DNA of 31,081 nt from an uncultured Clostridia bacterium (GTDB lineage Bacteria; Bacillota; Clostridia; Oscillospirales; Ruminococcaceae). A program made the translations under genes and the position numbers. The DNA lies in assembly GCA_947586185.1 (NCBI GenBank), contig CANPXN010000031.1:1-31081 (forward strand), in the 5' to 3' direction. Below the pieces are notes generated by a model. The model did no database searches and was not told the origin of the DNA. It saw nothing but the letters and a program-made list of their open reading frames with translations. This document shows positions 1-22,940 of this stretch, one piece after another. How positions within the stretch are numbered: position 1 is the stretch's first letter; the number at the start of each line of letters is the position of its first letter.

Positions 1-150
1 GTTGGTTTTTCTCTTTCCCCCTCCCTCCTATAGGTTGTCCCTTTGCATTTACCTTTCCGCACGCTTTCGGAAAGCGGTAAATATAAAAAGTTTTCCCATA
101 GCTTTTCCAAAAGCGATAAACAGTTTCCATTATGCTTTTCTAAAGCAAAA
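1..150. repeat. Dispersed structured non-coding element, copy A (right-hand part only, cut by the window edge)
   Basis: nt 1-53 are near-identical to 5518-5570 and 9327-9379. They are followed by the same phased GCTTT-N-AAAGC mini-hairpin units seen in copies B and C. Confidence 0.8.
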
Positions 151-183
151 AATTTCCCGTCACTGAAAATCATCAGTGACGGG
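146..183 (-). terminator. Rho-independent terminator downstream of the cellobiose phosphorylase gene
   Basis: An 11-bp stem (cccgtcactga / tcagtgacggg, 156-166 / 173-183) is followed by a T-run on the minus strand (A-run 146-152 on the plus strand). It lies just after the stop at 205. Confidence 0.75.
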
Positions 184-204: not shown

Positions 205-2661
205 TTAGCCCATAATAGCTTCAACAACGTGAGTTTTTCCGTCGCCGAATACAGGGAGGATATTGCCTTCGATAGCCTTGCCGTCAACAGTTACAGACTT
301 AATACCCTTTGAAACGTGGTCAGGGTTCTTGAATGTAATGTCGTAGGTAGCTCCTCTGTACTGTCTTGTAGCCTTGAAGCCGTCCCATGCCTTCTGGATG
401 CTTGGATCGAGCTTTAAGCCATCCCAATCAGGGATAATACCGAGGATGTACTGTGAAACTGCAACAAAGTTCCATGCAGCAGTACCTGTCAGCCAGCTGT
501 TCTTAGCCTCGCCGTGGCGCTTAGCGTCCTTTCCGGCGATCATCTGAGCGTAAACGTATGGCTCAGTTCTGTGGAGGTCTGAGTACTTTTCTTCTCTGTA
601 TGCCGGAGCGATCTTTGAATAGTATTCAAACGCCTTGTCGCCATGACCTACGAAAGCCTCAGCGCAGATTATCCATGCGTTGTTGTGGCAGAAGATACCT
701 GCATTTTCCTTATATCCAGCCGGATATGTTGAGATTTCACCGTATTCAATATAGTATTTTGTGAATGCAGGGTTATTAAGAACAAGACCATGCTCGCTGT
801 TGAGATATTTGTCAACGCTTTCAAGAGCCTTGAGGTCAGCGCCTGTTTCCTTGCCAACACCTGACATAACGGCAAAGCCCTGAGGTTCAATGAAGATCTT
901 ACCCTCTTCACATTCCTTTGAACCCATTTTCTTTCCGAAGTCGTCGTAAGCTCTGAGGAACCACTCGCCGTCAAAACCAAATTCCATAATGTTTTTCTTC
1001 ATCTTTTCGATCTCAGCCTCAGCCTTCTGAGCTTCAGCCTCGTCGCCTCTTCTTCTGCAAAGCTCAGCGTAGTTAGGGCCTGCATATGTAAACAGCGCTG
1101 CAACAAAGATGGATTCAGCAGTCTTACTGTACTTGTCCTCACCGTACTTTGGTGAAGTTGATGTCTGGAAGGATTCGCCCGGCTCTGCGGAGAAGCAGCT
1201 CAAATTGATGCAGTCGTTCCAGTCAGCACGCATAGCCAGCGGAAGTCCGTGAGGGCCAACGTTTTCGCATACATGATAGAAGCTCTGCTTCAAGTGGTGC
1301 ATCATAGACTGAGCTCTGCTCATATCGTTATCGTAAGGAACCTTTTCGTCAAGGATCGAGTAATCGCCTGTTTCCTTAATATATGCTGCTGTTGAAAGGA
1401 TCATCCACAGCGGATCGTCTGAGAAGTCGCCGCCGATCTCGTCGTTGCCCTTTTTAGTAAGAGGCTGATACTGGTGGTAGCAGCCGCCGTCTTCAAGCTG
1501 TGTAGCCGCTAAGTCGAGTATTCTCTCTCTTGCTCTTTCAGGTATCTGGTGAACGAAACCAAGGAGGTCTTGGTTGGAGTCACGGAAGCCCATGCCTCTG
1601 CCGATACCGCTTTCAAAGTATGAAGCGGAACGTGACATATTGAAAGTAACCATGCACTGATACTGATTCCAGATGTTTACCATTCTGTTCATCTTGTCGT
1701 CGCATGTCTGAACTGTATATTTTGAAAGTAAAGCGTCCCATTCAGCCTTTAACTCAGCGAGTGCAGCGTCAGCCTTTTCAGCTGTGTTAAACTGCTCCAT
1801 CATAGCATAAGCCTTTGATTTATTCATTGAGCCGTCAGCATTGAATTTTTCTTCAACAGGGTTTTCAACATAGCCCAGCATGAACACGAGGTCCTTTGAC
1901 TCGCCCGGTTCAAGAGTGATCTCGATGGAGTGTGAAGCGATAGGCGACCAGCCGTCTGCAACGGAGTTATTAGACTTGCCTGCTGTAACAGCCTGAGGAT
2001 TTTCAAAGCCGTTATAAAGACCCATGAAGCTTTCTCTGTCACTGTCGAAGCCGTCGATCTTTGTATTTACTGTATAGAAAGCGAAGTGATTACGTCTTTC
2101 CTTATATTCTGTCTTGTGGAAAAGGGTTGAGCCTTCAATCTCAACTTCGCCTGTGTTAAAGTTTCTCTGGAAGTTTGTTGAGTCGTCCTGAGCGTTCCAC
2201 AGGCACCATTCAACGAATGAGAAGAGCTTGATTGTTTTCTTTTCGCTGCCCTCGTTTTTTACGACCATTTTCTGAATCTCGCCGTTAAAGTTATGAGGAA
2301 CAAAGAAAGTAACTTCTGCGCTTACGCCATTTTTAGCGCCCTTGATGATTGTGTAGCCCATACCATGACGGCACTCGTAGGAGTCAAGGTCTGTCTTGAC
2401 CGGAGCCCAGCCAGGTGACCAGATAGTACCGCCGTCGTTTATGTAGAAATAGCGTCCGCCCATATCGACAGGAACGTTGTTATAGCGGTAACGGGTAATT
2501 CTTCTGAGTCTTGCGTCCTTATAGAAGTGATAACCACCGGCTGTATTTGAAATCAGTGAGAAGAACTCCTGAGTTCCGAGGTAGTTGATCCACGGATATG
2601 GTGTTTTTGGGGAAGTAATGACATATTCTTTTTTAGCGTCATCGAAAAATCCGAATTTCAT
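205..2661 (-). CDS. cbp: Cellobiose phosphorylase (glycoside hydrolase family 94)
   Basis: The 818-aa ORF has the size and N-terminus ([24 protein letters not shown]...[16 protein letters not shown]) typical of clostridial cellobiose phosphorylases. An AAAGGAG RBS precedes the ATG. Confidence 0.9.
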
Positions 2662-2841: not shown

Positions 2842-3849
2842 TCAGGCAATAGTAAAGAACCTCTGATGAGCTGTAAAGCTTTCGTTTGGTCTTATTTCTC
2901 TGTATCCGCTTACCTCCGGAGGCAGAGAAAGGTTCGGAGCGTCGATCATAGCGGTCATAGGCTCCGGGCAGAAGTATTTGTTAAAGCCTCTGTCGTTCCA
3001 GAATATCCAGAACCTGTATTCGTCGCTTACTTCATAGCATAGCTTTTTGCCGCTTTCGGTATCCTCGGCAACGACTCCGTGGAAAGGCTGACCGTTAAGG
3101 TTCATGGTTTCGCCGAAGTACATCTCATTGTCCACCACCTGAAGAACAGGGCGTTTTCCACCCTTTAAGTATTCCGTATCCGAGGTATTAAGCTCCAGCA
3201 GCTCCTCCGTCGGCAGGCATCTGTCATTAAGCTCACAGCGCTTGCCAATAGGAGCGTGAAGTCTTATATTGCCCTCCTTGCCACCGTCTGCAAAAGGCGA
3301 GTTGATAGTGGTGTGTGTTGCAAGGGATATCGGCATCATCTTGTCCGACAGATTTGTAAGCTTCACCTCATGCTCCAGACCGTGCTCGGAAAGAGTGAAG
3401 GTAAATTCTGCCAAGAACCGTACAGGGAAGTATCTGAAAAATTCGTCGTTTTCGTCATATCTGTAGCAGGTCTTTACAACTGCGCAGTTATCGTCTGCGT
3501 GATGCTCCTTCAGAGTATGGGCTCTCTTGTGAAGAAAGCCATGAATGTGGTTGTTGTACGGAGCTTTTTCGTTTACCGGCAGATGATAAACAGCGTCGCT
3601 TGTTTTTAGTATTCCGTCTGCAAATCTGTTAGGCAGATACAGAGTCGGAAGACCCCAGACCTCCGCTGACTGTCTTATATTATCGGCAGTGTTGTTCGGG
3701 TCAAAGCGGAAAAACTCCATGCCGTTTTTATCGTCGTGAAGTCTTATGACATTTGAACCTATTTCATAAGCCACAAGAGCCTTATAGCCTCCTGCGGAAA
3801 ATTCAACGCATGGCGTTCCGCCGAAATTAATAAGCTTTGTATAGTTCAT
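2842..3849 (-). CDS. Aldose 1-epimerase (galactose mutarotase-like) family protein
   Basis: The ORF of 335-339 aa looks like the aldose epimerase fold family, based on length and the motif pattern around HGF and FCPEP. I prefer the ATG at 3849 because the ATG at 3861 abuts the GGAGA RBS with no spacing. Confidence 0.65.
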   Translation of the reverse strand: MNYTKLINFGGTPCVEFSAGGYKALVAYEIGSNVIRLHDDKNGMEFFRFDPNNTADNIRQSAEVWGLPTLYLPNRFADGILKTSDAVYHLPVNEKAPYNNHIHGFLHKRAHTLKEHHADDNCAVVKTCYRYDENDEFFRYFPVRFLAEFTFTLSEHGLEHEVKLTNLSDKMMPISLATHTTINSPFADGGKEGNIRLHAPIGKRCELNDRCLPTEELLELNTSDTEYLKGGKRPVLQVVDNEMYFGETMNLNGQPFHGVVAEDTESGKKLCYEVSDEYRFWIFWNDRGFNKYFCPEPMTAMIDAPNLSLPPEVSGYREIRPNESFTAHQRFFTIA

Positions 3850-3945: not shown

Positions 3946-4785
3946 TTATTTTCTAAAAAGCTGACAAAAAACAATTTCAGAGGGATTGAACACTCTGAGC
4001 TTTCCGATACCCGTACTTACAAGCATAGTCGAGCCGTCCTTAGTGTAAAGACCCTTGGTGTATTTCGGGAAAAATTTTCGTTCCGGGGAGAGAATACCGC
4101 CGATCACAGGAAGTCTTCCTACGCCGCCGTGGACATGTCCTGAGAAAATGATCTCCGCTCCCCACTGGGCATAGCTTTCAAGAAAGAGGGGATTGTGAGC
4201 CATAAGAATTGTAAAGCCTTTTTTAGAGCCGATGTCATGTCTTATGTCTTCGGGCTGAACGTCCTTTAAGTCCTTATAGCCGCCATTTTCGTTTTTATAG
4301 TTTGCTCTTTCGAGGCTGAGTCCGGCAATGGTAATGCTTTCGCCGTCCTCGGTTATCTCAGCGGTATTGTTGTTCAGAACCGTACAGCCGCAGTTTTCGA
4401 TTATCCCCATAAGCCTTGAACGGTTTCTGTCGGAGAGGTCAAGCTCGTGGTTGCCCAGCGAGCATATTACCGGGGCGATGCCCTTGAGCTTTCTGAGCAG
4501 CACCTCAGTTTTGCGGTAGTCAGTCATTTTCCGGGAAATAAGATCTCCGGTTATCAGAATAAAGTCCGGTTCAAGCTCCTTTATTCTCCGGACAAGCTGC
4601 TGCCAGCCGTTTTTGTAGGTTTTGCTGTGAATGTCAGAGATCTGGACTATTTTCATGCCGTCAAAGCTCATTGGGAGCTTCATTGAGCATATCTCATAAC
4701 GCCTTGTTACCAGAAGTCTGCTTTCTACATAAACATAGATCAAAAAAAGAAGAAAAAGAAGAAGTAATGCTATAGCATATCTCAT
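3946..4785 (-). CDS. Membrane-anchored metallophosphoesterase (calcineurin-like, YkuE/YaeI type)
   Basis: An N-terminal TM segment is followed by the motifs QISDIH, GDL, GNHE and GHVHGG. The start at 4785 has an AAAGGAG RBS; the longer track ORF (to 4854) runs into the promoter. Confidence 0.85.
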   Translation of the reverse strand: MRYAIALLLLFLLFLIYVYVESRLLVTRRYEICSMKLPMSFDGMKIVQISDIHSKTYKNGWQQLVRRIKELEPDFILITGDLISRKMTDYRKTEVLLRKLKGIAPVICSLGNHELDLSDRNRSRLMGIIENCGCTVLNNNTAEITEDGESITIAGLSLERANYKNENGGYKDLKDVQPEDIRHDIGSKKGFTILMAHNPLFLESYAQWGAEIIFSGHVHGGVGRLPVIGGILSPERKFFPKYTKGLYTKDGSTMLVSTGIGKLRVFNPSEIVFCQLFRK

Positions 4786-4822
4786 AAGATCGCTCCTTTC
4801 CGGTATTGACTTAGTTACTATT

Positions 4823-4851
4823 ATTATACCCTTACAAACTGATATTGTCAA
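4823..4851 (-). promoter_or_regulatory. Consensus sigma-A promoter of the metallophosphoesterase gene
   Basis: Minus strand reads TTGACA (4851-4846), a 17-nt spacer, then TATAAT (4828-4823). Confidence 0.75.
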
Positions 4852-5712
4852 CAAAGCTTTTGAGCGCTTTCCCGAAGGGGAAAGCCGAAAAGGCTTTTTA
4901 ATGCTTTTGAAAAAGCATTAATGGAAAATTTATAAGGCTTTGGCAAAGGCTTGTTTTGTTTGGGGTAGCCGCTTTCCGAAAGCGACCTCAAAGGTTTTGT
5001 ATGTTCATTTCTTTGCTCCTGCAAAGAAACGAACCAAAGAAACAGGCTGCTCAAACGCCGCAGAGCTTGAAACCCGCACCCGGTAGATACGCATAGAAAT
5101 CTGAAATTTTGCAAGCAAAATTTACAGACTTTCCATGCGTATCTACATGGGGGTTACTTTGACGGCTTAAGGAACATCTTTTTGATTGCTTGTACTCATT
5201 GGCACTGTCCCTTGTATGGTTTATCCTTAATTGTTACGTTAATTCTCCCACGGGGAGGCAAGGTGATATTCTACCTATTGCTGACTGAGGAGGCTTGTCC
5301 GGCATCGCTTTGCTTGCCTCAATTCCTTGAGCGACTCTCCCAAATTTGTTGAGAGTATCTTTTCCCTTTCTGCTCCCAGCACCTGCGATGTTTTTGCCGC
5401 TTTCAGCGGCAAAAGAGCAAGCGGCGAGAGTTAAAAATGCGGAATGGGGGTAGGAGGTGTGTGGAAAGAGAGTGCAGAGGGAAAACCTACAGGAGGGAGG
5501 GGGAAATCCGCATTTTTGTTGGTTTTTCTCTTTCCCCCTCCCTCCTATAGGTTGTCCCTTTGCATTTACCTTCAAGGTCGCTTTCGTAAAGCGGCGAAAA
5601 AAGTTTACCTATCGCTTTGTTTAAAGCAATAAAAGTTTCCCTATAGCTTTAACCAAAGCTATAAAAAGCCTTTTCGGCTTTCCCTTAAAGGGAAAGCATT
5701 CAAAAGCTTTTG
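4852..5712. repeat. Dispersed structured non-coding element, copy B (complete, with ~48-bp terminal inverted repeats)
   Basis: The core 5003-5570 aligns with 8649-9379. The ends 4852-4899 and 5664-5712 are inverted repeats of each other. Arrays of ~32-36-nt mini-hairpin units lie on both sides in mirrored orientation. Confidence 0.85.
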
Positions 5713-5751
5713 GTGTTATGAATATCGGAGAGAGAACCGGTATATAATTGA

Positions 5752-6618
5752 ATGAATGGAGGGATCGAATTGAGCATGAAGAATCCAGAAGAGTATAAGC
5801 AGGAAATGCTTCGTATGTATAGACAAAATCCGGCTGCCCGTCAGGCGGCAGTACAGACCATACAGCCTGCCATGGAAAACACTCTCAGACCGGTTAGCAC
5901 AGGGAATGTACCAGCGCAGGGAGAGTCCGCCATGGAGAACTCCCTCAGACCGGACGGCACAGGGAATATGTCACCGATGGAGGGGGCTGTCATAGAGGAC
6001 TCGCCTGAGCCTGCTGCCGGAGAAGATATGCCGGTGCAGGAGGAATCTGCTGTGGAGGACATTGCTAATACTGAGAATGCGTATCTTAAAGAAGAAGCTT
6101 TACCCGTAAAGGAAAGTGGCAGGGATGAAATGCCGCCGGTGACCGAAAGATATCCTGAGCCAAGGCTTCCGTCATATATTTCTCCGATGTTTGCCCCGGA
6201 GGAGGAAGAGCCTTATGAGATACCGAAAAACGAACAAGGCACGGGCTATATCGAGGTGAGAGTTACTACCGGAAGAGGAGCTGTTCCTGTGGAGGGGGCG
6301 GCGGTCATTATATCCTCCGGAGGAAATGGAAAGCAGGAGATCATACGCACCCTTACAACGAACAGCAGCGGAAATACCGGAAGAACAGCGCTTCCTGCGC
6401 CTAAAAGAAGCGGAGCACAGACCCAGGAGGCTTTAAACGACTATTCCATATACAACGTATCGGTGTATTTCAAGAGCTTTTTCAGGGAGGAAAGTCAGGA
6501 TATACCCGTATTTGACGGAATAACCTCTGTACAGAGCTTTGACCTTATTCCAAAACCATATGAATACGACGGACAGGACGGCACGATCATGTATGAAAAT
6601 CCTGAACCGGTCGTTTGA
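5752..6618 (+). CDS. Protein resembling the N-terminal pre-pro region of spore cortex-lytic enzyme SleC (low-complexity region plus a carboxypeptidase-regulatory-like beta domain)
   Basis: 288-aa ORF. The C-terminal segment (GYIEVRVTTGRGAVPVEGAAVIIS...YNVSVYF) resembles the CarboxypepD_reg-like N-domain that starts clostridial SleC. The gene sits immediately upstream of the SleC-like catalytic gene. The start is uncertain (5752 or 5776). Confidence 0.5.
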   Translation: MNGGIELSMKNPEEYKQEMLRMYRQNPAARQAAVQTIQPAMENTLRPVSTGNVPAQGESAMENSLRPDGTGNMSPMEGAVIEDSPEPAAGEDMPVQEESAVEDIANTENAYLKEEALPVKESGRDEMPPVTERYPEPRLPSYISPMFAPEEEEPYEIPKNEQGTGYIEVRVTTGRGAVPVEGAAVIISSGGNGKQEIIRTLTTNSSGNTGRTALPAPKRSGAQTQEALNDYSIYNVSVYFKSFFREESQDIPVFDGITSVQSFDLIPKPYEYDGQDGTIMYENPEPVV

Positions 6619-6632
6619 GAGGAGGACGAAAA

Positions 6633-8024
6633 ATGACGGGAGAACCGATTATTCCGGAAATGATAACAGTGCATCTGGGAACTCCCCAGTCGGGAGCTGA
6701 CAATGTTACGGTGTCCTTTCCGGACTATGTAAAAAATGTTGCAAGCAGTGAGATATATCCGACATGGCCGGAAAATTCCCTGAGGGCAAATATCTATGTT
6801 ATAGTAACCTTTGCTCTTAACAGGATATATACTGAGTGGTATCGCTCAAAGGGATATGATTTTGACATTACAAGTTCGACTCAATACGACCAGAAATTTA
6901 TTTACGGCAGGGAGATCTTTGAAAATATTTCAGTGCTTGTAGATGAGCTTTTCAACGACTACATAAGAAGACAGGGTACTGTTGAGCCGCTTTTTGCTGC
7001 GTTCTGCAATGGAACGACAGTTACATGCAACGGTCTTTCCCAGTGGGGGACTGTTGATCTTGCAAATCAAGGGATGACTCCTTTTGAGATTTTGCAGTAC
7101 TATTACGGCGACGACATAGAGATTGTAGAAAACGCTCCGGTAATGCAGAATCAACCGTCGTATATGGGGCAGCCCCTCAGATTAGGAGATGCGTCAAACG
7201 AAGTAAAGACCCTACAGGTAAGGCTTAACCGCATATCCCGTAATTATCCGGCGATACCTAAGATACCGTCGGCGGACGGATATTTCGGACTTTATACGGA
7301 AGAAGCGGTAAAAGAATTCCAGAGAATATTTAATCTTGACCCTACCGGAGTAGTCGACAAGTCCACATGGTATAAGATAGAGTATATTTTTACAAGCGTA
7401 AAGCGATTAAGCGAACTTAATTCCGAGGGCCTCAGGCTTGAGGAAGTTGCAAAGCAGTTTACCGAGGTCCTTTCCATGGGAATGCAGTCCAATGAAGTCA
7501 AAAATCTCCAGTATTTTCTTGCAGTCATAGGCGCATATTATGAGCAGGTTCCGCCGGTTCCTATAACGGGTTATTTTGGGGAGCAGACCGAAAACTCCGT
7601 AAAGGCATTTCAAAGAGTGTACGGACTTCCGGAGACCGGTATCGTCAACAGACAGACATGGGAGGATATTTACAGAGCCTATGACGGAATAGTGCAGTCA
7701 GTACCTGTAACTGCCGGAAATGACGTAATACTTTATCAGGGCAGGATATTACAGGAGGGAATGACCAGCGACAGCATAAGGATATTACAGGAATATCTTA
7801 CTTTTATCCATGAAACATATCCGGATATTCCGGCGGTAAATAATACGGGATATTTCGGACCGGTGACCAGATCCGCCGTTATTGCGTTCCAGAACAGGTT
7901 CGGTATCCAGCCGACCGGGGTGGTGGGAGCTGTTACATGGAATGAAATTGCCGGAGTTTATTCAGACCTCAGGTACGGCTATGACAAAAGACCGTATCAG
8001 AATCCGGGATATACTATCAGTTAG
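6633..8024 (+). CDS. sleC: Spore cortex-lytic enzyme SleC-like protein with three PG_binding_1 repeats
   Basis: The N-terminal ~170 aa (ITVHLG...NVASSEIYPTWPENSLRANIY...LNRIYTEWYRSKGYDFDITSSTQYDQ) match my recollection of the conserved lytic domain of clostridial SleC. Three ~65-aa peptidoglycan-binding repeats follow (...GYFG......AV..FQ....L..TG.V...TW..I). A GAGGAGGA RBS precedes the ATG at 6633. Confidence 0.65.
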   Translation: MTGEPIIPEMITVHLGTPQSGADNVTVSFPDYVKNVASSEIYPTWPENSLRANIYVIVTFALNRIYTEWYRSKGYDFDITSSTQYDQKFIYGREIFENISVLVDELFNDYIRRQGTVEPLFAAFCNGTTVTCNGLSQWGTVDLANQGMTPFEILQYYYGDDIEIVENAPVMQNQPSYMGQPLRLGDASNEVKTLQVRLNRISRNYPAIPKIPSADGYFGLYTEEAVKEFQRIFNLDPTGVVDKSTWYKIEYIFTSVKRLSELNSEGLRLEEVAKQFTEVLSMGMQSNEVKNLQYFLAVIGAYYEQVPPVPITGYFGEQTENSVKAFQRVYGLPETGIVNRQTWEDIYRAYDGIVQSVPVTAGNDVILYQGRILQEGMTSDSIRILQEYLTFIHETYPDIPAVNNTGYFGPVTRSAVIAFQNRFGIQPTGVVGAVTWNEIAGVYSDLRYGYDKRPYQNPGYTIS

Positions 8025-8035
8025 GAGGAAGCGCT

Positions 8036-8545
8036 ATGGCATATACCGATAAAGAGAAGTCGGAGCATATTAGAGAGGCTCAGCGATATATTTATGGCAT
8101 ATCCTTTCACAACAAGAGGATACCCAGGGTGATCCCCGATGGGATTTACGGAGAGAAAACGGCTGAGGCTGTGAGGATATTCCAAGAGGAGTATGGGCTT
8201 AAACCCACCGGCGAGATAGACAAGGCGACATGGAACAGGCTTGTTCAGGTGTATTCTGAATATACAAGGGATATTGTTCTTCTTGATGTTTTTCCGGAAA
8301 ACTATGTTTTAAAGCCGGGGGACAGCGGTGCAGTTGTTTATATAATTCAGGTCATACTCAATACTCTTTCTGTCAGGTTTTCAAATATACCTTCCGTGGA
8401 GTTGAGCGGTGTTTATGATGAAAGCACAGCCGACGCTGTGAGAAAGTTCAGGGAAACCGCTGCTCTTTCCCCCTTTGAGGGTATTGACTTTGAAGCATGG
8501 AACAAGCTTGCTTCCGGATTTAATATGATGAAGAAAAACGTTTAG
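8036..8545 (+). CDS. Peptidoglycan-binding (PG_binding_1 x2) protein
   Basis: The 169-aa ORF has two putative PG-binding repeats (DGIYGEKTAEAVRIFQEEYGLKPTGEIDKATWNRL and GVYDESTADAVRKFRE). A GGAGGA RBS is present. Confidence 0.7.
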   Translation: MAYTDKEKSEHIREAQRYIYGISFHNKRIPRVIPDGIYGEKTAEAVRIFQEEYGLKPTGEIDKATWNRLVQVYSEYTRDIVLLDVFPENYVLKPGDSGAVVYIIQVILNTLSVRFSNIPSVELSGVYDESTADAVRKFRETAALSPFEGIDFEAWNKLASGFNMMKKNV

Positions 8546-8565
8546 GCTTTTCGTGAAAAGCCCTT

Positions 8566-9506
8566 CAAAAGCTTTTGAGTGCATTCCCGAAAGGGAATGC
8601 CGAAAAGGCTTTTTTTATAGCTTTACGAAAGCTTTAGCAAAAGTTTATGTTCATTTCTTTGCTCCTGCAAAGAAACGAACCAAAGAAACAGGCAGCTCAA
8701 ACGCCGCAGGGCAGCAAGGCAACACGCACAAAACTTGCACGCAATCTGCTTGATTATTTTCCGCCATATTGCATAGAAACTCCTTGAAATACAAAAGTAT
8801 TCCTGCGTCGTTTCTATACAATCTGGCAAAAAATCCTGCGGCGCATCTTCCGCACAAGTTTTATACGTGTTGCCTTGATTTCGCACCCGGTAGAAACAAA
8901 TAGAAATCTGAAATTTTGCAAGCAAAATTTACAGACTTTCTATTTGCTTCTACATGGGGGTTACTTTAGTGATTTATGAAACATCTTTTTGATTGCTTGT
9001 ACTCATTGGCACTGTCCCTTGTACGCTCTGCTTGTAACTGTTACGTTAATTCTCCCACGGGGAGGCAAGGTTGAGTTCTACCCATTGCTGACTGAGGAGG
9101 CTTGGTCGGCATCGCTTTGCTCGCCTTATTCCTTGAAAGATTCTCCCATCTAAGCGGAGTCTTTGCTTTCTTTTCTTTTCTGCTCCCAGTAACCTGCGAT
9201 GTTTTTGCCGCTATGCGGCAAAAGAGCAAGCGGCGAGAGTTAAAAATGCGGAATGGGGGAGGGAGGTGAGTGGAAAGGGAGTGCAGAGGGAAAACCTACA
9301 GGAGGGAGGGGGAAATCCGCATTTTTGTTGGTTTTTCTCTTTCCCCCTCCCTCCTATAGGTTGTCCCTTTGCTTTTACCTAAGAGGTTTGTCTTCGCTTT
9401 CCCCAAAGCGAAAAAAGTTTTCCGGTCGCTTTCGTAAAGCGGCTAAAAAGTTTACCTATCGCTTTATTCAAAGCAATAAAAGTTTTCCCATAGCTTTTTC
9501 AAAAGC
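8566..9506. repeat. Dispersed structured non-coding element, copy C (carries an extra ~170-nt hairpin domain)
   Basis: The core 8649-9379 aligns with 5003-5570, except that 8710-8881 replaces 11 nt of copy B. The left end matches the left end of copy B. The right mini-hairpin array ends at the rpsT terminator. Confidence 0.85.
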
Positions 9507-9536
9507 AAAAAAGCGTATCCTTAAAAGGATACGCTT
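9506..9536 (-). terminator. Rho-independent terminator of rpsT
   Basis: The hairpin gcgtatcc-ttaaa-aggatacgc is followed by a T-run on the minus strand, about 35 nt after the stop at 9571. Confidence 0.75.
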
Positions 9537-9570
9537 TCATGTATTACTATTCTGATTGCTTAGAGAAAAA

Positions 9571-9831
9571 TTAGCCAGCGGCGTTCAGCTTCTTAGCAAG
9601 CTGAGATTTCTTTCTTGCTGCACAGTTCTTGTGCATAAGGCCCTTGGCAGCAGCCTGATCCACTCTCTTGATTGCAACTCTTACAGCCTCGTTCTTGTCA
9701 GCTGAATTAGCTGCACAGGCAGCGTCTGCCTTCTTGAGAACAGTCTTGAGATTTGACTTTCTTGCCTTGTTGGCAGCAGCCTTTGTCTTATTGACCTTAA
9801 CTCTCTTTGCTGCGGATTTAATGTTAGGCAT
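9571..9831 (-). CDS. rpsT: 30S ribosomal protein S20
   Basis: The 86-aa lysine/alanine-rich ORF starts MPNIKSAAKRVKV, which is typical of S20. A GGGAGG RBS is present. Confidence 0.93.
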   Translation of the reverse strand: MPNIKSAAKRVKVNKTKAAANKARKSNLKTVLKKADAACAANSADKNEAVRVAIKRVDQAAAKGLMHKNCAARKKSQLAKKLNAAG

Positions 9832-10118: not shown

Positions 10119-10967
10119 ATGAATATTAGAACAGACCTTGCCCTTGAGGGGATAAACGCTGCAAAAGTCAGAGATGGAATACGCCGCACTGAAAGGGGAG
10201 AGGCATTTAAGATAACGGAGATAATAATCGAGGAGGACAGGTTCGGCGTTCCCATTGGAAAAAAGAAGGGCAGATATATAACCCTTGAGGGACAGCCGCT
10301 GGGTAGATTTTCGGATAATTACCGTGAAATGGCATATGAGCTTGCCCATGAAATAACGCCTCTTATTCCCGACGGACCTGTGCTTGTTGCAGGGATAGGA
10401 AACAGCGATATTACCCCCGACGCTTTGGGACCGCTGGCGGCAGCGCAGATTCTTGCCACAAGGCATCTCAAAAAGGAGCTTGGGGAGGAAGACGAATTTT
10501 TGTCCAGTCTTAGGCAGGTAAGCGTTCTTGCACCGGGAGTTCTGGGTCAGACCGGCATTGAGGCAGGGGAGCTTCTTTCATCGCTGGAAGAAAGCGTAAA
10601 GCCCTCCTCAATAATAGCGGTTGACGCTCTTGCATGCTCTGACGTAAACCGTCTTGGAACTACCATTCAGATATCCGACTCCGGTATTTCTCCGGGAAGC
10701 GGCGTTCAGAACAGCCGCAGGGAGCTTTCTAAGGAAACCTTAGGAGTACCTGTTATAGCCGTAGGAGTTCCCACAGTTGTGGACATGCACACCATTGTTC
10801 AGGGGCTTACGGGAAAACCGGTCAGCTCGTCGGTGCCCAATATGATGGTTACTCCGAGGGATACGGACAAGCTCACTGAAAGAGCGGCAGGACTTATCGC
10901 ATGCGGAATAAATCTTGCTTTGCACAGTGAGCTTGATTTTGAGGATATTCAGAATATTATGATGTAA
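10119..10967 (+). CDS. gpr: Germination protease GPR (peptidase A25)
   Basis: MNIRTDLALE at the N-terminus, the GIGN..ITPDALGP motif and a length of ~280 aa fit GPR. An AAAGGAG RBS precedes the ATG at 10119, so the longer track ORF start at 10086 is unlikely. Confidence 0.88.
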   Translation: MNIRTDLALEGINAAKVRDGIRRTERGEAFKITEIIIEEDRFGVPIGKKKGRYITLEGQPLGRFSDNYREMAYELAHEITPLIPDGPVLVAGIGNSDITPDALGPLAAAQILATRHLKKELGEEDEFLSSLRQVSVLAPGVLGQTGIEAGELLSSLEESVKPSSIIAVDALACSDVNRLGTTIQISDSGISPGSGVQNSRRELSKETLGVPVIAVGVPTVVDMHTIVQGLTGKPVSSSVPNMMVTPRDTDKLTERAAGLIACGINLALHSELDFEDIQNIMM

Positions 10968-11802
10968 AAAGTCTCCAGAGGCATGCCGCAGCGGCGCAGA
11001 GTATGATTCCGCAAAGCTCCGGTATAAGTACGGCTGCGGCAGTCCATTTAAGGCTGCCGGTTTCTTTTTTTACGGTAAGGCATGCTGTTGAACAAGGGAA
11101 GTGGAACAGTATCATAATTATCATACATAGCGCTGTAAGAGTGCTCCAGCCGTTGTTTACGAAAATTTCCTTCATGACTGCAAGGTCGCCTACCTCAACG
11201 ATTTTCCCCTGAGCTGTATATGCCATAATAATTATCGGGATAACTATTTCATTTGCCGGAAAGCCAAGGAAGAATGCAAGGAGAATAACGCCGTCAAGCC
11301 CTAAAAACAGTCCTATAGGCTCAAGTAACTGGGAGAGGTGGGAGAGCAGGGATGCGTCGGATATGTTTATATTTGCAAGAAGCCATATAAGAAGTCCAGC
11401 CGGAGCGGCGGCGGCACAGGCTCTTCCCAAAACGAAAATTGTTCTGTCAAAAATGGAGCGGACAATGACCTTTCCGATTTGCGGTCTTCTGTATGGCGGA
11501 AGCTCTAAGGTGAACGAGGATGGAACTCCCTTTAAAAGTGTGTGGGAGAGTATCCATGAAACGGCAAAGGTCATAAATATTCCGGCAAGGACTGCCAGAA
11601 GCAGCAGCGCTGAGGAGGCGACTGAGCCTGAAAATCCCTTTGATACGGCAAAAAACATTGCGATTATGGATATGAGCGCCGGAAAGCGTCCGTTGCATGG
11701 CACAAAGTTGTTGGTAAGTATAGCAATAAGCCTTTCCCTCGGAGAGTCGATTATTCGGCAACCGGTTATTCCTGCGGCATTGCAGCCAAAGCCCATGCAC
11801 AT
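10957..11802 (-). pseudogene. feoB: feoB, C-terminal (membrane) fragment, separated from the rest of the gene by the inserted element
   Basis: The ORF begins MCMGFGCNAAG..GCRIIDSPRERLIAILTNNFVPCNGRFP, the conserved gate/membrane region of FeoB. It has no RBS or G-domain of its own. It continues the reading frame of 21573-22828 once the element is removed. Confidence 0.9.
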
Positions 11803-11879
11803 GGATAGTATTAAACCGTTAGTAATTTATGCATACAGTTTATTGCCATGCTAAGCAAGGTGGTTAACCGTATGCCATT

Positions 11880-13508
11880 TTAGTTTATATACTCTTTGGT
11901 TTCGGATTTGCAGGTAAAGCGAAAATAAATTTTTATTTTCTGATGTTTGATTTTTTTGTTTCCTGACTTTTCATAATGTCCTTGGTACACGTCAATTCGT
12001 TCAATCAATTTAAAAAGCAGTTCTGAATTAAGTTCCTTGATGTCAGAATATTCATTAAGAAGATTAAAGTATTTTTGATATGCCTGTTTCTCAAGGGACT
12101 TATTTTCTTGCATCTCTGCATTTTTTTGACATTGCTTTAGCTTTTCCGCAAGCAGTTTACTTTCATTTTCATATTTTTCAAGAAGCTTATTAAAATTATC
12201 ATTGCTTAATCGACCGGAAAAGTTATCGTCATAAATTTTTTCAATTTTGCTGTCAGATTGTTTTATTTTTTTCTGCAATGTTTCCAATTCATCAGATGCT
12301 TTACTTCGCTTTTGGGTTTTGCTGTTTTCCTTTAAAACTTCATTTAAAATTTCCTGTTTGTCCTGTTCTGAAAGATTTATTTGTTCTCTCAGCGTATCAA
12401 GAACGATTTTATAAAGAATATCATAATCAATGAAATGATTTGTACAGGCTTTTGCACCTTTTAATTTATAAGCTCCGCATTCAAGGTTAGCTGTTGAGCC
12501 TTTTTTTCTTGTGCCGACAGTACTCATATTTTTACCGCAGTCGGCACATTTTGCGAGTCCTGAAAAAATATTTACAAAGCTGTTTTTCTTATTGTATGCT
12601 CTGCTCTGGGAATATCTTTGCACTACTTCAAAAGTTTCCTTGTCGATAATAGGTTCATGCGTATTTTCAACAACAAACCAATCGTCTTTGGATTTTGCAA
12701 TAGTAGTTTTAAGTCTGAAAGATACCTTTGTTGTTTTACCCTGTGCCATGTGACCTATGTACACTACATTTTTAAGCATTCGGGAAATAGTTCCAGCTCT
12801 CCATTCTCCGTCTGTTTTATATTTGTTCATATCAAGATGATATTTATTACAACGGTATGTAAGCGGTGAGGGTATATTTTTCATATTAAGATGTTTTGCT
12901 ATATCTGCCGGCTTATTTCCTTTTGAAGCCATGTAAAAAATTTCTTTTACAATGGGTGCGGTTTCTTCGTTAATAAGAAAATGATTTTTGTTTTCAGGGT
13001 CTTTGCAGTAGCCGTATGGAGCAAAATTACCTATGTAATTGCCTTCTTTCATTTTGACAGTAAAAGAAGAACGAATTTTTTTAGAAATGTCACGTGCGTA
13101 CATTTCATTAATAACATTTTTAAATGGTGCAATATCATTGTTTACAGCATTTTCAGAATCATAACCATCATTAATGGCAATATATCTTACCTGTTTTTTT
13201 GGAAAATACACTTCGGTATATTGTCCGGCTGTAATATAATCACGTCCTAAACGTGATAAATCCTTTGTGATAACGGTATTGATTTTATTTTCCTCAATAT
13301 CGTTAATCATTCGGTTAAAGCTTGGTCTGTCAAAGTTTGTGCCTGTGTAACCGTCATCAATATATTCATCATAAATGATGAAATTATTTTCCTTTGCAAA
13401 TGCAGTAAGCATTTTTCTTTGCGTTGTTATACTTGCACTTTCATTTTCTCCGTCTTCTCTTGACAATCTCATATATAAGGCTGCTATATAGCGTGGTTGC
13501 GGTTTCAT
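11880..13508 (-). CDS. Large serine recombinase (resolvase N-domain + recombinase domain + zinc ribbon + coiled coil)
   Basis: The 542-aa ORF has the catalytic-serine context AALYMRLSRED, then DGYTGTNFDRP and LSRLGRDY. It also has a Cys cluster (CADCGKNM...CGAYK....ACTNH) and a K/E-rich coiled-coil tail. An AGGAGG RBS is present. Confidence 0.92.
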   Translation of the reverse strand: MKPQPRYIAALYMRLSREDGENESASITTQRKMLTAFAKENNFIIYDEYIDDGYTGTNFDRPSFNRMINDIEENKINTVITKDLSRLGRDYITAGQYTEVYFPKKQVRYIAINDGYDSENAVNNDIAPFKNVINEMYARDISKKIRSSFTVKMKEGNYIGNFAPYGYCKDPENKNHFLINEETAPIVKEIFYMASKGNKPADIAKHLNMKNIPSPLTYRCNKYHLDMNKYKTDGEWRAGTISRMLKNVVYIGHMAQGKTTKVSFRLKTTIAKSKDDWFVVENTHEPIIDKETFEVVQRYSQSRAYNKKNSFVNIFSGLAKCADCGKNMSTVGTRKKGSTANLECGAYKLKGAKACTNHFIDYDILYKIVLDTLREQINLSEQDKQEILNEVLKENSKTQKRSKASDELETLQKKIKQSDSKIEKIYDDNFSGRLSNDNFNKLLEKYENESKLLAEKLKQCQKNAEMQENKSLEKQAYQKYFNLLNEYSDIKELNSELLFKLIERIDVYQGHYEKSGNKKIKHQKIKIYFRFTCKSETKEYIN

Positions 13509-13548
13509 ATTTTACCTCCTGAACCCAACCTATAACTTATATTATAGG

Positions 13549-13689
13549 CTAATTATACCATGTTTCAGGGCTTGTTTCAATATGAGTATTTAATATTAAT
13601 TCTTTTATTAATTCCTTAATGTTTTTATCTTTAAAATCCGTTTCTATAATGTAAATATCCTTATTTTCTTCAATACTTTCATTATCCAT
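13549..13689 (-). CDS. Small acidic ORF (46 aa) immediately upstream of the serine recombinase; candidate accessory/directionality factor
   Basis: My own translation: MDNESIEENKDIYIIETDFKDKNIKELIKELILNTHIETSPETWYN. A GGAGGTG RBS lies ~7 nt upstream. The ORF is co-oriented with, and 40 nt from, the recombinase ATG. No homology was recognised. Confidence 0.35.
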   Translation of the reverse strand: MDNESIEENKDIYIIETDFKDKNIKELIKELILNTHIETSPETWYN

Positions 13690-13791
13690 TAATAAGCACC
13701 TCCATATTAATGTTTATGTTTAAAGTGCTTTGCTATGCGTATAATTTTAGTATAATAATCCTTAAATTTGCTAATTGCAGAATAATAAAAT

Positions 13792-13847
13792 AAAAAAATA
13801 CTGTCAAGGGCACGAAGTGTGCATTTACCCTTGACAGTATTTTTTTA
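13792..13847. terminator. Bidirectional Rho-independent terminator
   Basis: A perfect 13-bp stem (atactgtcaaggg / cccttgacagtat) is flanked by an A6 run on the left and a T7 run on the right. Confidence 0.7.
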
Positions 13848-13936
13848 TGAGTTATAATGTGCAATCAAATTTAAGGATTTATTGTCATATATAAGTATCG
13901 AATGAATAATATGTAACAATGAAATTTGACAAAAAT

Positions 13937-13963
13937 ATTCGCAGAGTTAGTCACTCTGCGAGT
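13937..13963. other. Candidate tyrosine-recombinase core site L (10-7-10: ATTCGCAGAG TTAGTCA CTCTGCGAGT)
   Basis: Inverted 10-bp arms surround an asymmetric 7-bp spacer. The reverse complement of site R matches it at 26 of 27 positions. Confidence 0.5.
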
Positions 13964-14158
13964 AGAATTTCTAATATTTTATAGATTTATTCTACAACAT
14001 TGAAGAATAAAAGTCAACTCGATTTGTCAATATTTACTATATTTCTGCTTTTTTACTAATTAAGTTACAATTTTTTTGTATAGGTTATATGCTAAAATGG
14101 CTTTAAATTAATCTATTCGGGGTCAAAATATGGGTCAATTATTCAGGAGGTTGTGATA

Positions 14159-15247: not shown

Positions 15248-15308
15248 TGGTCAAAATTATGGTCAGAAAATCTCATCAATCCCTTATTTGCGTTGTTTAT
15301 AAACGAAA

Positions 15309-15335
15309 ATTCGCAGAGTGACTAACTCTGCGAAT
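15309..15335. other. Candidate tyrosine-recombinase core site R (10-7-10: ATTCGCAGAG TGACTAA CTCTGCGAAT), inverted relative to site L
   Basis: The arms are perfectly palindromic. The 7-bp spacer TGACTAA is the exact reverse complement of the site L spacer TTAGTCA. Confidence 0.5.
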
Positions 15336-15407
15336 AAGGTCAGGCTTTTGGGTTATTTTTAGGTTAACCGAAAAATGAGGAATTATGCAAGTTTAGGGGG
15401 AGTGTTT

Positions 15408-15992: not shown

Positions 15993-16007
15993 AAGGTAAT
16001 AAATTAA

Positions 16008-17306: not shown

Positions 17307-17341
17307 ATGAATTTATAAAAATAACTGGAGAATACGTAAAA

Positions 17342-17812: not shown

Positions 17813-17861
17813 ATTCAATTATAAACGAATTGATTTCTTACTCCCCACAAAAATAATAATC

Positions 17862-17905
17862 AAAAAAATTCTGTATGTTCTTTCAAAACATACAGAATTT
17901 TTTTG
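17862..17905. terminator. Bidirectional terminator between convergent operons
   Basis: The stem attctgtatgtt / aacatacagaat is flanked by an A7 run and a T7 run. Confidence 0.7.
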
Positions 17906-17933
17906 CATTTCAGCAATTAAGGAGTTAAGAATA

Positions 17934-18836: not shown

Positions 18837-18847
18837 AACGCTACTCC

Positions 18848-22920: not shown

Positions 22921-22940
22921 CTGAAAAAATCAATATGTAA

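Follow-up and report, generated by a model that had tools for sequence, protein, structure and literature searches.

The window analysed here, a stretch of 31,081 nucleotides from one contig of an uncultured Clostridia bacterium, contains three intergenic copies (A, B and C) of an element of approximately 0.9 kb, at 1-152, 4853-5711 and 8568-9506, as the original prediction held. Copies B and C are alignable end to end with approximately 84-87% identity, and copy A, which is cut by the edge of the window, matches their 3' part. The three copies and the units from which they are built are the following.

1-152, unstranded: copy A, cut by the window edge, comprising the 3' third of the conserved core and a hairpin array, just before the cbp terminator.
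4853-5711, unstranded: copy B, a composite element of ~0.86 kb, with the promoter of a metallophosphoesterase gene on one side and a gene that starts at 5752 on the other.
8615-9506, unstranded (8568-9506 with the 45-nt hairpin): copy C, a composite element with the PG_binding gene on one side and the rpsT terminator on the other.
4853-4899, 5665-5711 (inverted) and 8568-8614, unstranded: a 45-nt REP-like compound hairpin that also stands alone in relatives.
5575-5664, unstranded: an array whose units, ~33 nt long, each contain a GCTTT-N3-6-AAAGC hairpin.
4900-4998, 8617-8645, 9380-9512 and 50-152: similar GCTTT...AAAGC arrays.
5000-5431 in copy B and 8646-8715 plus 8877-9240 in copy C, unstranded: a lineage-specific segment that includes the hairpin 5083-5146 / 8890-8953.
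8716-8876, unstranded: a MITE of 161 nt, independent and nested in copy C, with AAGGCAACACG / CGTGTTGCCTT as terminal inverted repeats, missing from copy B.

Each copy in the window is a composite of REP-like hairpin units, approximately 430 nt of private sequence and a conserved core of 134 nt. The two ends of copy B form an inverted repeat (4853-4995 versus 5568-5710, 73%), and the GCTTT-N3-6-AAAGC hairpins, of which the window has 14 compared to 0.6 expected, all lie in or beside the three copies. The 45-nt compound hairpin is found solo in relatives that lack the element (L001, at 4566-4622 and 12617-12662); thus, the hairpin at 8568-8614 is a separate REP-like unit and not the start of copy C, for which the predicted extent stands from 8615 to 9506 but not from 8568 to 8614. 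Copy C is longer than copy B because of the nested MITE, homologs of which are located at the copy-B site in L001 (7414-7590), L002 and L005.

The open reading frames of copy B match those of copy C neither in position nor in length, the alignment of the two copies contains indels of 1, 2 and 4 nt, and none of the seven open reading frames matches Pfam at E<=0.1, so that the earlier view of them as not conserved is upheld. The lineage-specific segment is 84% identical between copies B and C and has no homolog in any other locus fetched, as is true of the ~700 nt outside the core in general. The hairpin 5083-5146 within this segment does contain the three compensatory changes that had been read from it (T5088:A5141 to A8895:T8948, G5091:C5138 to A8898:T8945, and C5092:G5137 to A8899:T8944), all of which RNAalifold recovers from the comparison of copies B and C; there is likewise an A-C mismatch at A8896/C8947, and the apical ~40 nt are identical in both copies. 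The region is much more structured than expected by chance: z is -21 for the minus strand and -15 for the plus strand of the whole element folded as RNA, and -6.6 for the core folded as DNA. No Rfam 15 covariance model matches the window at gathering thresholds, and at E<=10 the interval 4700-9700 yields only generic miRNA-hairpin models, on the long stem alone and far below gathering. Comparison of copy B by BLASTN to 72,556 plasmids and 50,697 phage records matched nothing. Counts of promoters and terminators predicted in 4700-9700 are not above those in shuffled sequence. The sole perfect promoter in that interval (4851-4823, minus strand) is that of the metallophosphoesterase gene.

In lineages that are approximately 5% diverged in the flanking genes, the element is missing at all three sites. 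Eight related contigs with 94-96% identical flanking genes have 48 unrelated nt at the copy-C site; L001 and L002 have 55 unrelated nt at the copy-A site; and L001, L002 and L005 have a different MITE of 177 nt at the copy-B site. The rpsT site is occupied in L003 (99.3%) and L004 (95.9%), and both contigs break inside the element. Two loci in different genera (L012 and L014) have in common a palindromic version of ~800 nt with 83% identity in unrelated contexts. Ends that are inverted repeats are found in copy B, where they consist of REP-like units of which the right-hand one is missing in copy C, and in the versions at L012, L014, L020, L031 and L047; the single-module versions from the rumen have no terminal inverted repeats. 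The sequence AAAGCTTTT is present on both flanks of copy B and is itself part of the palindromic end unit. Neither a clean empty site nor an unambiguous target-site duplication was found, the "empty" sites being occupied by 48-55 nt of other sequence or by another MITE, and no transposase-like open reading frame adjoins any of the ~45 copies of the core, judged by open reading frame context as the sole criterion. In being small, non-coding, multi-copy and polymorphic in presence or absence, the element resembles a MITE, and it is very probably a polymorphic, mobile repeat: its presence or absence by lineage, the nested insertions, the unrelated insertion contexts and the occurrence of inverted pairs point to spread, or gain and loss, as non-coding DNA. 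The original reading is supported to this extent: the element is non-coding, multi-copy and polymorphic in presence, its structure is conserved and co-varying, and Rfam does not contain it.

The 134-nt core is the sole part that the window copies have in common with copies from other genera. Pattern scans together with the covariance model R1 identified ~45 copies on the true strand, in 14 genome loci, 22 metagenome loci and one phage contig, and the family is spread over Oscillospiraceae (Ruminococcus, Huintestinicola, and further rumen and gut genera). All copies are intergenic. Two contigs of ~120 kb have three copies each, and the family includes six inverted pairs, of which five are divergent. 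The sequence TGCAAAGGGACAACC is invariant in the family. A divergent, GC-rich subgroup (L028, L038, L040 and L046) has a weak S1 stem and favours the opposite strand. Six further loci from a looser scan of viral sequences, none of which fits the covariance model, and two from the genome scan (L019 and L023) are chance matches. The only genuine phage locus is L047, so there is no general association with phages. The parts of the core, most of which are named after their proposed roles in folding, are as follows.

5432-5564, plus strand: core (triplex-pseudoknot module) of copy B, 128 bits with R1.
5432-5443, plus strand: 5' strand of stem S1, TAAAAATGCGGA, which pairs with 5507-5518.
5443-5472, plus strand: L1, a purine-rich linker and the proposed third (reverse-Hoogsteen) strand, an ungapped mirror of 5477-5506.
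5473-5476, plus strand: TGCA, the centre of the mirror repeat as read off the sequence and the proposed turn between third strand and purine arm.
5477-5506, plus strand: purine (5') arm of stem S2.
5507-5518, plus strand: 3' strand of S1, TCCGCATTTTTG, within the apical loop of S2.
5531-5564, plus strand: pyrimidine (3') arm of S2, the last 15 nt of which, GGTTGTCCCTTTGCA, are nearly invariant in the family.
9241-9373, plus strand: core of copy C, 126 bits with R1, its parts being those of copy B shifted by +3809 (S1 at 9241-9252 / 9316-9327, L1 at 9252-9281, TGCA at 9282-9285, purine arm at 9286-9315 and pyrimidine arm at 9340-9373, all plus strand).
1-47, plus strand: core of copy A, made up of the pyrimidine arm (14-47) and some of the apical loop.

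Stem S1 has 10-12 contiguous pairs in 30 of 36 copies and occurs as 17 sequence variants, such as AAAAGCCGGC/GCCGGCTTTT and AAAAGCGGAG/CTCCGCTTTT. Stem S2 is a hairpin of ~31 bp, of which the lower half is nearly invariant and the upper half co-varies freely. Among 16 copies, 95.1% of cells are paired, compared to 52-64% if the partner strand is slid, and both sides have changed at 11 pairs versus 3.9 +/- 1.6 in shuffles, none of 500 of which reaches the observed number. Among 37 unique copies, S2 comprises 980 Watson-Crick, 49 G.U and 13 A.C cells, with changes on both sides at 20 of 30 pairs and a G.U pair at its base that is kept in 30 of the 37. On this comparative evidence both stems almost certainly form, and because the 3' strand of S1 lies in the apical loop of S2, the fold is a pseudoknot. 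The pseudoknot and the mirror-repeat (triplex) relation described below, which are the most distinctive features of the core, were not part of the original prediction.

The folded strand of the core, as judged from its sequence variants, is the G-rich plus strand rather than the minus strand that had been favoured, since the hairpin is more stable on the plus strand in 33 of 36 unique copies (by a mean of 6.1 kcal/mol) and G.U cells outnumber A.C cells by 49 to 13. The 22-bp stem 5485-5506/5531-5552 from which the minus strand had been argued is present in both copies with its single C-A (C5490/A5547), but this C-A is a peculiarity of the window copies. With respect to genes, the module is co-oriented with the upstream gene at ~20 of 30 loci (9-11 of 12 in the rumen group), and it often either follows a stop codon at a distance of 35-90 nt or precedes a start codon by 40-55 nt (for example, at L033, L034b, L041 and L043b, and 38 nt before terS in the phage contig L047). 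Window copy B runs antisense to its upstream gene, as do the copies at L011, L017 and L034a. By GC skew, ~28 of 45 copies are on the G-rich strand, which is suggestive but confounded with gene strand, and gene orientation is itself confounded with the direction of replication. In the rumen subgroup a TATAAT box is conserved on the plus side, 4-5 nt ahead of S1, and the best promoter of the L022 subgroup, TTGTAA-17-TATAAT with an upstream TG, is on the minus side ~30 nt before the hairpin. A search of both sides of the core found no promoter that all subgroups share, and neither box is present in the window copies.

The linker L1, 27-30 nt between S1 and S2, is related to the purine arm of S2 as a mirror image. 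Counting G.G-C, A.A-T and T.A-T as canonical triads, L1 of copy B placed ungapped against its arm gives 23 of 30, versus 13.1 +/- 2.6 for shuffled L1 and 11 in the direct register, and that of copy C gives 25 of 30, which none of 100,000 shuffles reaches. In the family, L1 scores 12.35 in mirror orientation on its own arm, 9.57 on arms from other copies and 9.26 when placed in direct orientation; the observed sum is reached by none of 20,000 permutations, in copies that are phylogenetically related and in sequence that is G-rich and of low complexity. The aligned triads are 289 G.G, 190 A.A, 67 T.A and 75 other, and the rules are broken where the middle of L1 faces ACC-T of the arm, at 5-7 positions. 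The pair of columns with the highest mutual information flanks the TGCA turn and changes from G,G to T,A in three clades; the mutual information of other L1-arm columns is mostly swamped by indels and phylogeny. The core has a single observed insertion, a hairpin of 15 nt in L013, which falls exactly at the TGCA turn, and in the window copies the length of L1 tracks that of the stem. These relations suggest that L1 is probably the third strand of an intrastrand triplex of class I (purine motif). Purine-motif triplexes that are rich in G are disfavoured by the high K+ inside cells. Two other roles for L1 are rejected or set aside: that of a switch, in which L1 as a direct repeat of the purine arm competes for the pyrimidine arm, because the direct register fits no better than unrelated arms; and that of a G-quadruplex as the primary explanation, which the six runs of G permit but which leaves the mirrored positions of the interrupting A's unconstrained.

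The closest known kind of sequence, to which the core would be a new relative, is the triplex repeat of E. coli. PIT/BoxC triplex repeats were reportedly described by Hoyne et al. in 2000. The BoxC/PIT (potential intrastrand triplex)/TMECO repeats occur in E. coli and other Proteobacteria, and TMECO repeats form inverted pairs and are associated with rearrangement (Holder et al. 2015, PMC4666352). Like the core, they consist of three consecutive blocks on the same strand (reverse-Hoogsteen, purine and pyrimidine) that obey purine-motif rules; they are G/C-rich, strictly intergenic, present in tens of copies per genome, associated with no gene and often arranged as inverted pairs, and their loci vary between close strains. 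There is no homology: the TMECO consensus, CCCTCNCCC-N3-6-GGGNGAGGG-N3-GGGNGAGGG (PMC4666352), has a CCCTCNCCC...GGGNGAGGG pattern that is absent from the family alignment. The core has the block order third strand, purine, pyrimidine, which is class I as defined in PMC4666352, whereas BoxC/PIT/TMECO are class II, with the blocks in the opposite order; it has ~27-30 triad positions in 134 nt, compared to nine in 37-56 nt. Its purine-pyrimidine loop of 24 nt pairs with the 5' flank as a pseudoknot clamp that BoxC lacks, and of its two loops the 4-nt TGCA fits the range of PIT loops (1-6 nt) but the 24-nt loop with the S1 strand does not. Also unlike BoxC/PIT/TMECO, the core is found in Firmicutes (Oscillospiraceae), inside elements of 0.2-0.9 kb, with a third strand that co-varies with the duplex across genera.

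Other kinds of repeat and RNA are more distant. REP/BIME/REPIN sequences stabilise upstream mRNA and are mobilised as single-stranded DNA. They are short palindromic units that cluster downstream of genes and where genes converge, either alone or in inverted pairs, and the likeness extends to the flanking 45-nt compound hairpins and 33-nt GCTTT...AAAGC units but not to the core, which is four times longer than a REP unit and has a pseudoknot and a mirror repeat. In the 31 kb of this genome that the analysis covered, no RAYT transposase (IS200/IS605-like Y1) was seen. MITE and foldback elements (Correia, ERIC, RUP, bcr1) are similarly non-autonomous, non-coding and insertion-polymorphic, with nested insertions, but what the core conserves with compensatory changes is an internal single-strand fold rather than terminal transposase-binding repeats, the single-module versions have no terminal inverted repeats, and no target-site duplication could be demonstrated in the family. 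In H-type pseudoknot RNA triplexes (telomerase RNA, SAM-II, preQ1-II) a linker lies along the major groove of the second stem, as L1 is predicted to do, and in these as in the MALAT1/PAN ENE triplexes the triplex gives an unusually stable, closed structure. Their third strand is U-rich, parallel to an A-rich strand and Hoogsteen-bonded in at most ~11 triples, whereas that of the core would be G/A/T-rich, antiparallel and reverse-Hoogsteen-bonded in up to ~25. The ROOL, GOLLD, OLE, HEARO, raiA and group II intron RNAs, which like the element are long, non-coding, highly structured and sometimes associated with phages, were named in the original prediction, which matched the element to no known family; none of their covariance models matches at E<=10, and the core is 134 nt compared to their 0.5-0.9 kb.

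The overall account that we favour, while giving it no better than an even chance, is that the core is a triplex-pseudoknot intergenic repeat that acts as single-stranded DNA. L1 would occupy the major groove of S2, running antiparallel to the purine arm; the resulting triads would be G.G-C, A.A-T and T.A-T, and S1 would clamp the top of the triplex. Such a fold is predicted to form whenever the G-rich strand is single-stranded, which might be as lagging-strand template, as non-template strand, or as an intermediate of transfer or transposition. A structure of this stability could block polymerases or nucleases and promote recombination, and the persistence and spread of the repeat may depend on the fold, as for the BoxC/PIT/TMECO repeats of E. 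coli. The preference for DNA over RNA as the form in which the fold acts is slight, and is given because DNA strands are the only ones for which extended purine-motif triplexes have been established.

The strongest competing explanation, somewhat less probable, has the same plus-strand fold acting in mRNAs (as part of a 3' UTR, intercistronic spacer or 5' leader) or in its own transcript, as a nuclease-resistant block that tunes mRNA stability or processing as REP/BIME do, with the DNA repeat as a mere vehicle. The excess of G.U over A.C cells and the G.U kept at the base of S2 are consistent with RNA, as are the co-orientation with upstream genes, the placement near stop and start codons, the TATAAT box of the rumen subgroup, which would put the start of transcription at the first base of S1, and the H-type pseudoknot topology, which is typical of RNA triplexes (PMC7583470). 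The orientation is not universal, given the four antisense copies and the frequency of divergent inverted pairs, and is confounded with the direction of replication; no promoter is common to all subgroups, that of the L022 subgroup being on the opposite strand; and the core is not followed by a terminator. The triplexes of natural folded RNAs are of the pyrimidine motif (PMC7583470), the antiparallel purine motif being absent from those known, and purine motifs are reported not to form with RNA strands (PMC4666352). The specific claim that a transcribed plus-strand core RNA forms a pseudoknot-clamped, antiparallel purine-motif triple helix of ~25 triads is accordingly graded as unlikely; if true, this would be the first extended purine-motif triplex in a natural RNA, and a mobile nuclease- or polymerase-blocking cassette that bacteria and phages have placed in 3' UTRs, spacers and leaders to tune the fate of mRNA.

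It is improbable that the core is a plain MITE or foldback element with no triplex, in which the hairpin and S1 are kept for transposition or by palindrome maintenance and the likeness of linker to arm reflects shared G-rich composition. The repeat is indeed multi-copy, non-coding and lineage-polymorphic, copy B has inverted-repeat ends with AAAGCTTTT on both sides, other MITEs are active in the same genome, and G-rich tracts give a high background of triads (~13 of 30 in shuffles). Composition alone is insufficient, because the fit of L1 is better with its own arm than with those of other copies; the mirror register also exceeds the direct (12.35 versus 9.26), the length of L1 follows the length of the stem in the window copies, and mirror repeats have no known mechanism of duplication and presumably cannot be equivalent protein-binding sites.

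Far less probable is a minus-strand RNA with a class III pyrimidine-motif triplex (C+.G-C and U.A-U) that would form at low pH, possibly as an acid-responsive element. The pyrimidine motif is compatible with RNA, and the complement of any class I motif is class III; the TTGTAA-17-TATAAT promoter of the L022 subgroup is on the minus strand, where S1 ends in a run of U and one C-A per window copy would become G.U. On that strand, 49 plus-strand G.U pairs turn into C.A mismatches (with 13 cells changing the other way), 33 of 36 hairpins are weaker, 67 T.A triads become non-canonical A.A-U, and five or more C+ triads in a row are not stable at the pH of the cell (PMC4666352). Hardly credible any longer is the original proposal that each copy of 0.85-0.95 kb is one gene for a large structured RNA, in a new class to be set beside ROOL, GOLLD or OLE. 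This proposal could account for the very low folding energies of the whole element, the three compensatory pairs in the 5083-5146 hairpin and the want of coding potential, but is contradicted by conservation beyond the lineage that is limited to 134 nt, rumen versions with a total length of just ~200-300 nt, lineages 5% diverged that do without the element, the 161-nt MITE that is tolerated in copy C and makes up its excess length, ends that are REP-like units also found alone, best hairpins (two) that favour opposite strands, and the result with Rfam.

Intrastrand triplex repeats are known mainly from BoxC of E. coli, and prior evidence for selection on the triplex consists of conservation and folding in vitro. 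In the core family, the proposed third strand and the duplex vary together from genus to genus, in a mirror register that only a triple helix explains, and would thus provide comparative evidence for a long purine-motif triplex maintained in living cells. The family also offers natural sequences among which compensatory variants already exist, and these could be used to test whether such triplexes form in DNA, RNA or both. It is abundant in Oscillospiraceae of the rumen and gut, it breaks metagenome assemblies, and it marks intergenic sites that vary between strains; it is therefore relevant to genome assembly, strain typing and annotation of the Oscillospiraceae.

The original prediction of a non-coding element present three times in the window is confirmed. 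Copies B and C can be aligned end to end with approximately 84-87% identity and with indels of 1, 2 and 4 nt, the ORFs in the copies differ in position and frame, and a Pfam search of seven ORFs found no match. The base pairs named in that prediction are all present, among them the three compensatory pairs of the hairpin at 5083-5146 / 8890-8953 and, in the 22-bp stem, the C-A.

Copies of the element and neighbouring genes
1-152: copy A, cut by the window edge
205-2661, minus strand: GH94 cellobiose phosphorylase
4853-5711: copy B
5752-6618, plus strand: gene without known function
8568-9506: copy C
9571-9831, minus strand: rpsT
Minus strand: metallophosphoesterase, with a perfect TTGACA-17-TATAAT promoter at 4851-4823
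Also neighbouring: aldose epimerase, two PG_binding proteins, gpr

The metallophosphoesterase promoter is immediately adjacent to the left end of copy B and is kept in relatives without the element; its position implies the start of the 279-aa protein, not that of the 302-aa ORF.

Relatives were chosen as contigs encoding exactly identical S20 protein. Eight of these (L001, L002, L005-L010) have flanking genes 94-96% identical to those of the window, no core was found anywhere in them, and the spacing of rpsT and the PG_binding gene is approximately 182 bp versus 1 kb in the window. The site of copy C holds 48 unrelated nt in the eight contigs; contigs without the core have 55 unrelated nt at the site of copy A and a different MITE of 177 nt at that of copy B. 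In the relatives' contigs L003 (99.3% identical) and L004 (95.9%), the element adjoins rpsT and both contigs end within it, as expected for an assembly-breaking repeat. The extra length of copy C relative to copy B is a 161-nt block (8716-8876) homologous to the 177-nt MITE, and thus copy C contains a nested insertion. This MITE is an independent unit of approximately 160-180 nt with terminal inverted repeats AAGGCAA(C/T)AC(C)G...CG(G)T(G/A)TTGCCTT, and in related strains it is found precisely at the copy B site, immediately following caacaaagctttt. Relatives without the element also have the 45-nt compound hairpin of 8568-8614, which occurs after another gene too and is therefore an independent REP-like unit; its pattern is AAAGCTTTTGAG-GCnTTCCC-GAAA-GGGAAnGC-CGAAAAGGCTTTTT, and it stands alone after several genes as well as making the inverted ends of copy B. 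GCTTT-N3-6-AAAGC hairpins number 14 in the window versus 0.6 expected, all in or adjoining the three copies, and the arrays of units that carry them may be a separate REP/BIME-like family.

Repeated units associated with the element
MITE: window 8716-8876; L001 7414-7590; L002 ~4061-4194; L005 ~7334-7467
45-nt REP-like compound hairpin: window 4853-4899, 5665-5711, 8568-8614; L001 4566-4622, 12617-12662
Arrays of ~33-nt units with one small co-varying GCTTT-N3-6-AAAGC hairpin per unit: window 50-152, 4900-4998, 5575-5664, 8617-8645, 9380-9512

Other features of the window were noted. The gene feoB is split into a C-terminal part (10957-11802) and an N-terminal part (21521-22987) by a low-GC (28-33%) integrative element of approximately 9.7 kb (~11850-21500). 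Encoded on this element are a large serine recombinase (11880-13508), a tyrosine integrase (14153-15247), a type IV coupling protein (18848-20236) and an M48 peptidase. Relatives L004 and L008-L010 have a whole feoB (698 aa), and L001, L003 and L005-L007 an interrupted one. A 21-nt tandem repeat of at least 15 copies (23011-23459) is part of a coiled-coil ORF (22941-23534, minus strand) and so encodes heptad repeats, not a non-coding array. Two intergenic stretches of approximately 210-240 nt (23522-23762 and 26223-26430), 82-89% identical and 2.7 kb apart, lie at the 5' side of minus-strand genes for an FtsX-like permease (23765-24913) and a BspA-type LRR protein (26491-27828).

Comparison of copy B with plasmid and phage records found no resemblance, and the Rfam search proposed with the original prediction was run and returned no matching family. 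Searching with a pattern based on the long stem gave 12 true loci among MAGs (Ruminococcus, Huintestinicola and other Oscillospiraceae), another pattern gave 22 metagenome loci, with at most three copies per ~120-kb contig, and one contig of a phage collection (L047, IMG/VR) was the only true viral match. By BLAST, only 5432-5565 of the window (with 9241-9372 and 1-47) is common to the other loci, at 78-95% identity; the other ~700 nt of the window element had no homolog in any of these genome, metagenome or phage loci. Judged from these comparisons, the ~0.9-kb unit is a lineage-specific composite, and the large minus-strand RNA originally proposed is not upheld, with only 134 nt conserved beyond the lineage. 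A covariance model of this core, R1, recovered approximately 45 true-strand copies. In L012, L014 and L020 the core occurs twice, divergently, within an imperfect palindrome of ~800 nt; the unit that contains it measures ~370-460 nt in L015, L016, L017 and L022, and ~200-300 nt in the rumen metagenome group. Several genera share a further conserved segment on the 5' side of the core that the window copies lack, with the motifs ATGGACGTATGCCCCATAA, GAACCGCAAA and GAACAAAACC (L012 4700-4960; L014 820-1100; the 130 nt preceding the core in L015, L016, L017, L020, L021 and L022). The phage contig has a divergent inverted pair of cores (2446-2590, minus; 2628-2769, plus) in the intergenic region that separates an antiterminator-like gene from the genes of the small and large terminase; the only convergent pair, in L024 (2958-3084, plus; 3117-3253, minus), has its 3' ends facing 33 nt apart, and its second core is much more diverged (41 bits).

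Parts of the core in copy B, plus strand
5432-5443: S1 5' strand, TAAAAATGCGGA
5443-5472: purine linker L1, proposed third strand
5473-5476: turn, TGCA
5477-5506: S2 purine arm
5507-5518: S1 3' strand, TCCGCATTTTTG
5519-5530: loop
5531-5564: S2 pyrimidine arm

The predicted hairpin S2 is strongly supported by comparison of copies. In 16 copies, 95.1% of cells are paired versus only 52-64% in slid controls, and both sides change at 11 pairs versus 3.9 +/- 1.6 in shuffles (0/500); in 37 unique copies, both sides change at 20 of 30 pairs. The lower half, GAGGGAAAACC / GGTTGTCCCTTTG, is almost invariant, including an A.G mismatch and a G.T that are both conserved; the upper half is free to vary, with compensatory changes. 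S1 pairs the apical loop of S2 with the 5' flank, so that the fold is a pseudoknot; 10-12 contiguous pairs are found in 30 of 36 copies, and there are 17 variants, such as AAAAATGCGG/CCGCATTTTT, AAAAGTCGGC/GCCGACTTTT, AAAAGCCGGC/GCCGGCTTTT, AAAAGCGGAG/CTCCGCTTTT and AAAAGTGCGG/CCGCACTTTT. In the reverse complement of a hairpin the Watson-Crick stacks are unchanged, but each G.U becomes C.A. The plus strand of S2 is more stable in 33 of 36 unique copies, by 6.1 kcal/mol on average, and its cells contain 49 G.U versus 13 A.C; the window copies are near neutral (-1.0 and -0.7 kcal/mol), which accounts for the original choice of the minus strand from two copies. The mismatches of the lineage-specific hairpin at 5083-5146 are A-C on the plus strand, and this disagreement with the core hairpin is further evidence against a single 0.9-kb RNA.

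L1 is neither a direct nor an inverted copy of the purine arm; it mirrors the arm, with TGCA at the centre. When the 30 nt on each side of TGCA are compared as mirror images by purine-motif rules (G facing G, and A or T facing A), 25 of 30 positions match in copy C and 23 of 30 in copy B; shuffled L1 gave 13.1 +/- 2.6 matches and reached the observed values in 0/100,000 (C) and 14/100,000 (B), and the direct register gave 11-12 matches in the window copies. Among 33 distinct copies, L1 scored 12.35 with the mirrored arm of its own copy, versus 9.57 with other copies' arms and 9.26 in the direct register; 0/20,000 permutations reached the observed own-arm sum, and the own arm ranked first in 14 of 33.

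Purine arms and L1 of four copies
L016: arm AGAGGAGGGGGAAA, L1 AAAGGGGGAGGAG
L020a: arm GGGGAGGGAGAAA, L1 AAAGAGGGAGAGG
L025: arm GGAAGGGGG, L1 GGGGGAAGG
L031b: arm GGAGGGAGGGGGAGGG, L1 GGGAGGGGGAGAGAGG

The aligned triads are G.G (289), A.A (190), T.A (67) and others (75). The top mutual-information column pair flanks the TGCA turn, where G,G becomes T,A in three clades. Exactly at this turn, one Huintestinicola copy (L013, ~2610-2625) has the sole insertion observed in the core, a self-complementary 15-nt hairpin (GAAACCAAAGGTTTC), with TGTG in place of the 5' TGCA and TGTA in place of the 3' TGCA. Had L1 and the arm drifted independently from a symmetric ancestor, no preference for the own arm over those of other copies would be expected. 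Mirror repeats are made by no known duplication mechanism, and they would not be equivalent to one another as sites for a DNA-binding protein. From these two considerations and the own-arm preference, we infer that L1 would lie antiparallel to the purine arm in the S2 major groove, with S1 clamping the top. Five to seven positions of L1 opposite ACC-T of the arm do not follow the triad rules; a bulge or crossover is probable there. The order of the core fits the class I purine-motif intrastrand triplex, which is defined by the order reverse-Hoogsteen, purine and pyrimidine domain (PMC4666352).

Extended purine-motif triplexes are established for DNA and reported not to form with RNA strands (PMC4666352), the triplexes of natural folded RNAs have the pyrimidine motif (PMC7583470), the nearest known repeats, BoxC/PIT/TMECO, fold as single-stranded DNA and mark rearrangement-prone loci (PMC4666352), and the core has z = -6.6 with DNA folding parameters; DNA is, on balance, slightly favoured over plus-strand RNA as the folding form. 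Plus-strand RNA, with a probability a little short of even, would fit the co-orientation of the core with the upstream gene at approximately 20 of 30 loci (9-11 of 12 in the rumen group), but gene orientation is confounded with replication direction. The core is often 35-90 nt past a stop codon or 40-55 nt ahead of a start codon, and the sense core of the phage contig ends 38 nt before terS, downstream of the antiterminator-like gene. The rumen subgroup has a conserved TATAAT box from which transcription would begin at the first base of S1, yet no promoter is common to all subgroups, the best promoter of one subgroup is on the other strand, and divergent inverted pairs of cores are frequent (5/6). 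Complementary-strand RNA, which would use the pyrimidine motif, is disfavoured by the G.U asymmetry and the 67 T.A triads.

The alternative of a non-autonomous element in the original prediction was broadly right. The element shares its population behaviour with MITEs and REP/BIME, but has terminal inverted repeats in some versions only, and neither a clean target-site duplication nor, in the ORF context of the copies, a partner transposase was found; it is none of the Rfam families, and a literature search found no description of such an element in Firmicutes. The element works like the BoxC/PIT/TMECO repeats but has no homology to them and differs in class (I versus II), in number of triad positions (~27-30 versus 9), in its pseudoknot clamp and in host phylum. 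The object of interest is the 134-nt pseudoknot-triplex core, the function of which is inferred, and a putative third strand that co-varies with its duplex is, as far as could be found, new comparative evidence.
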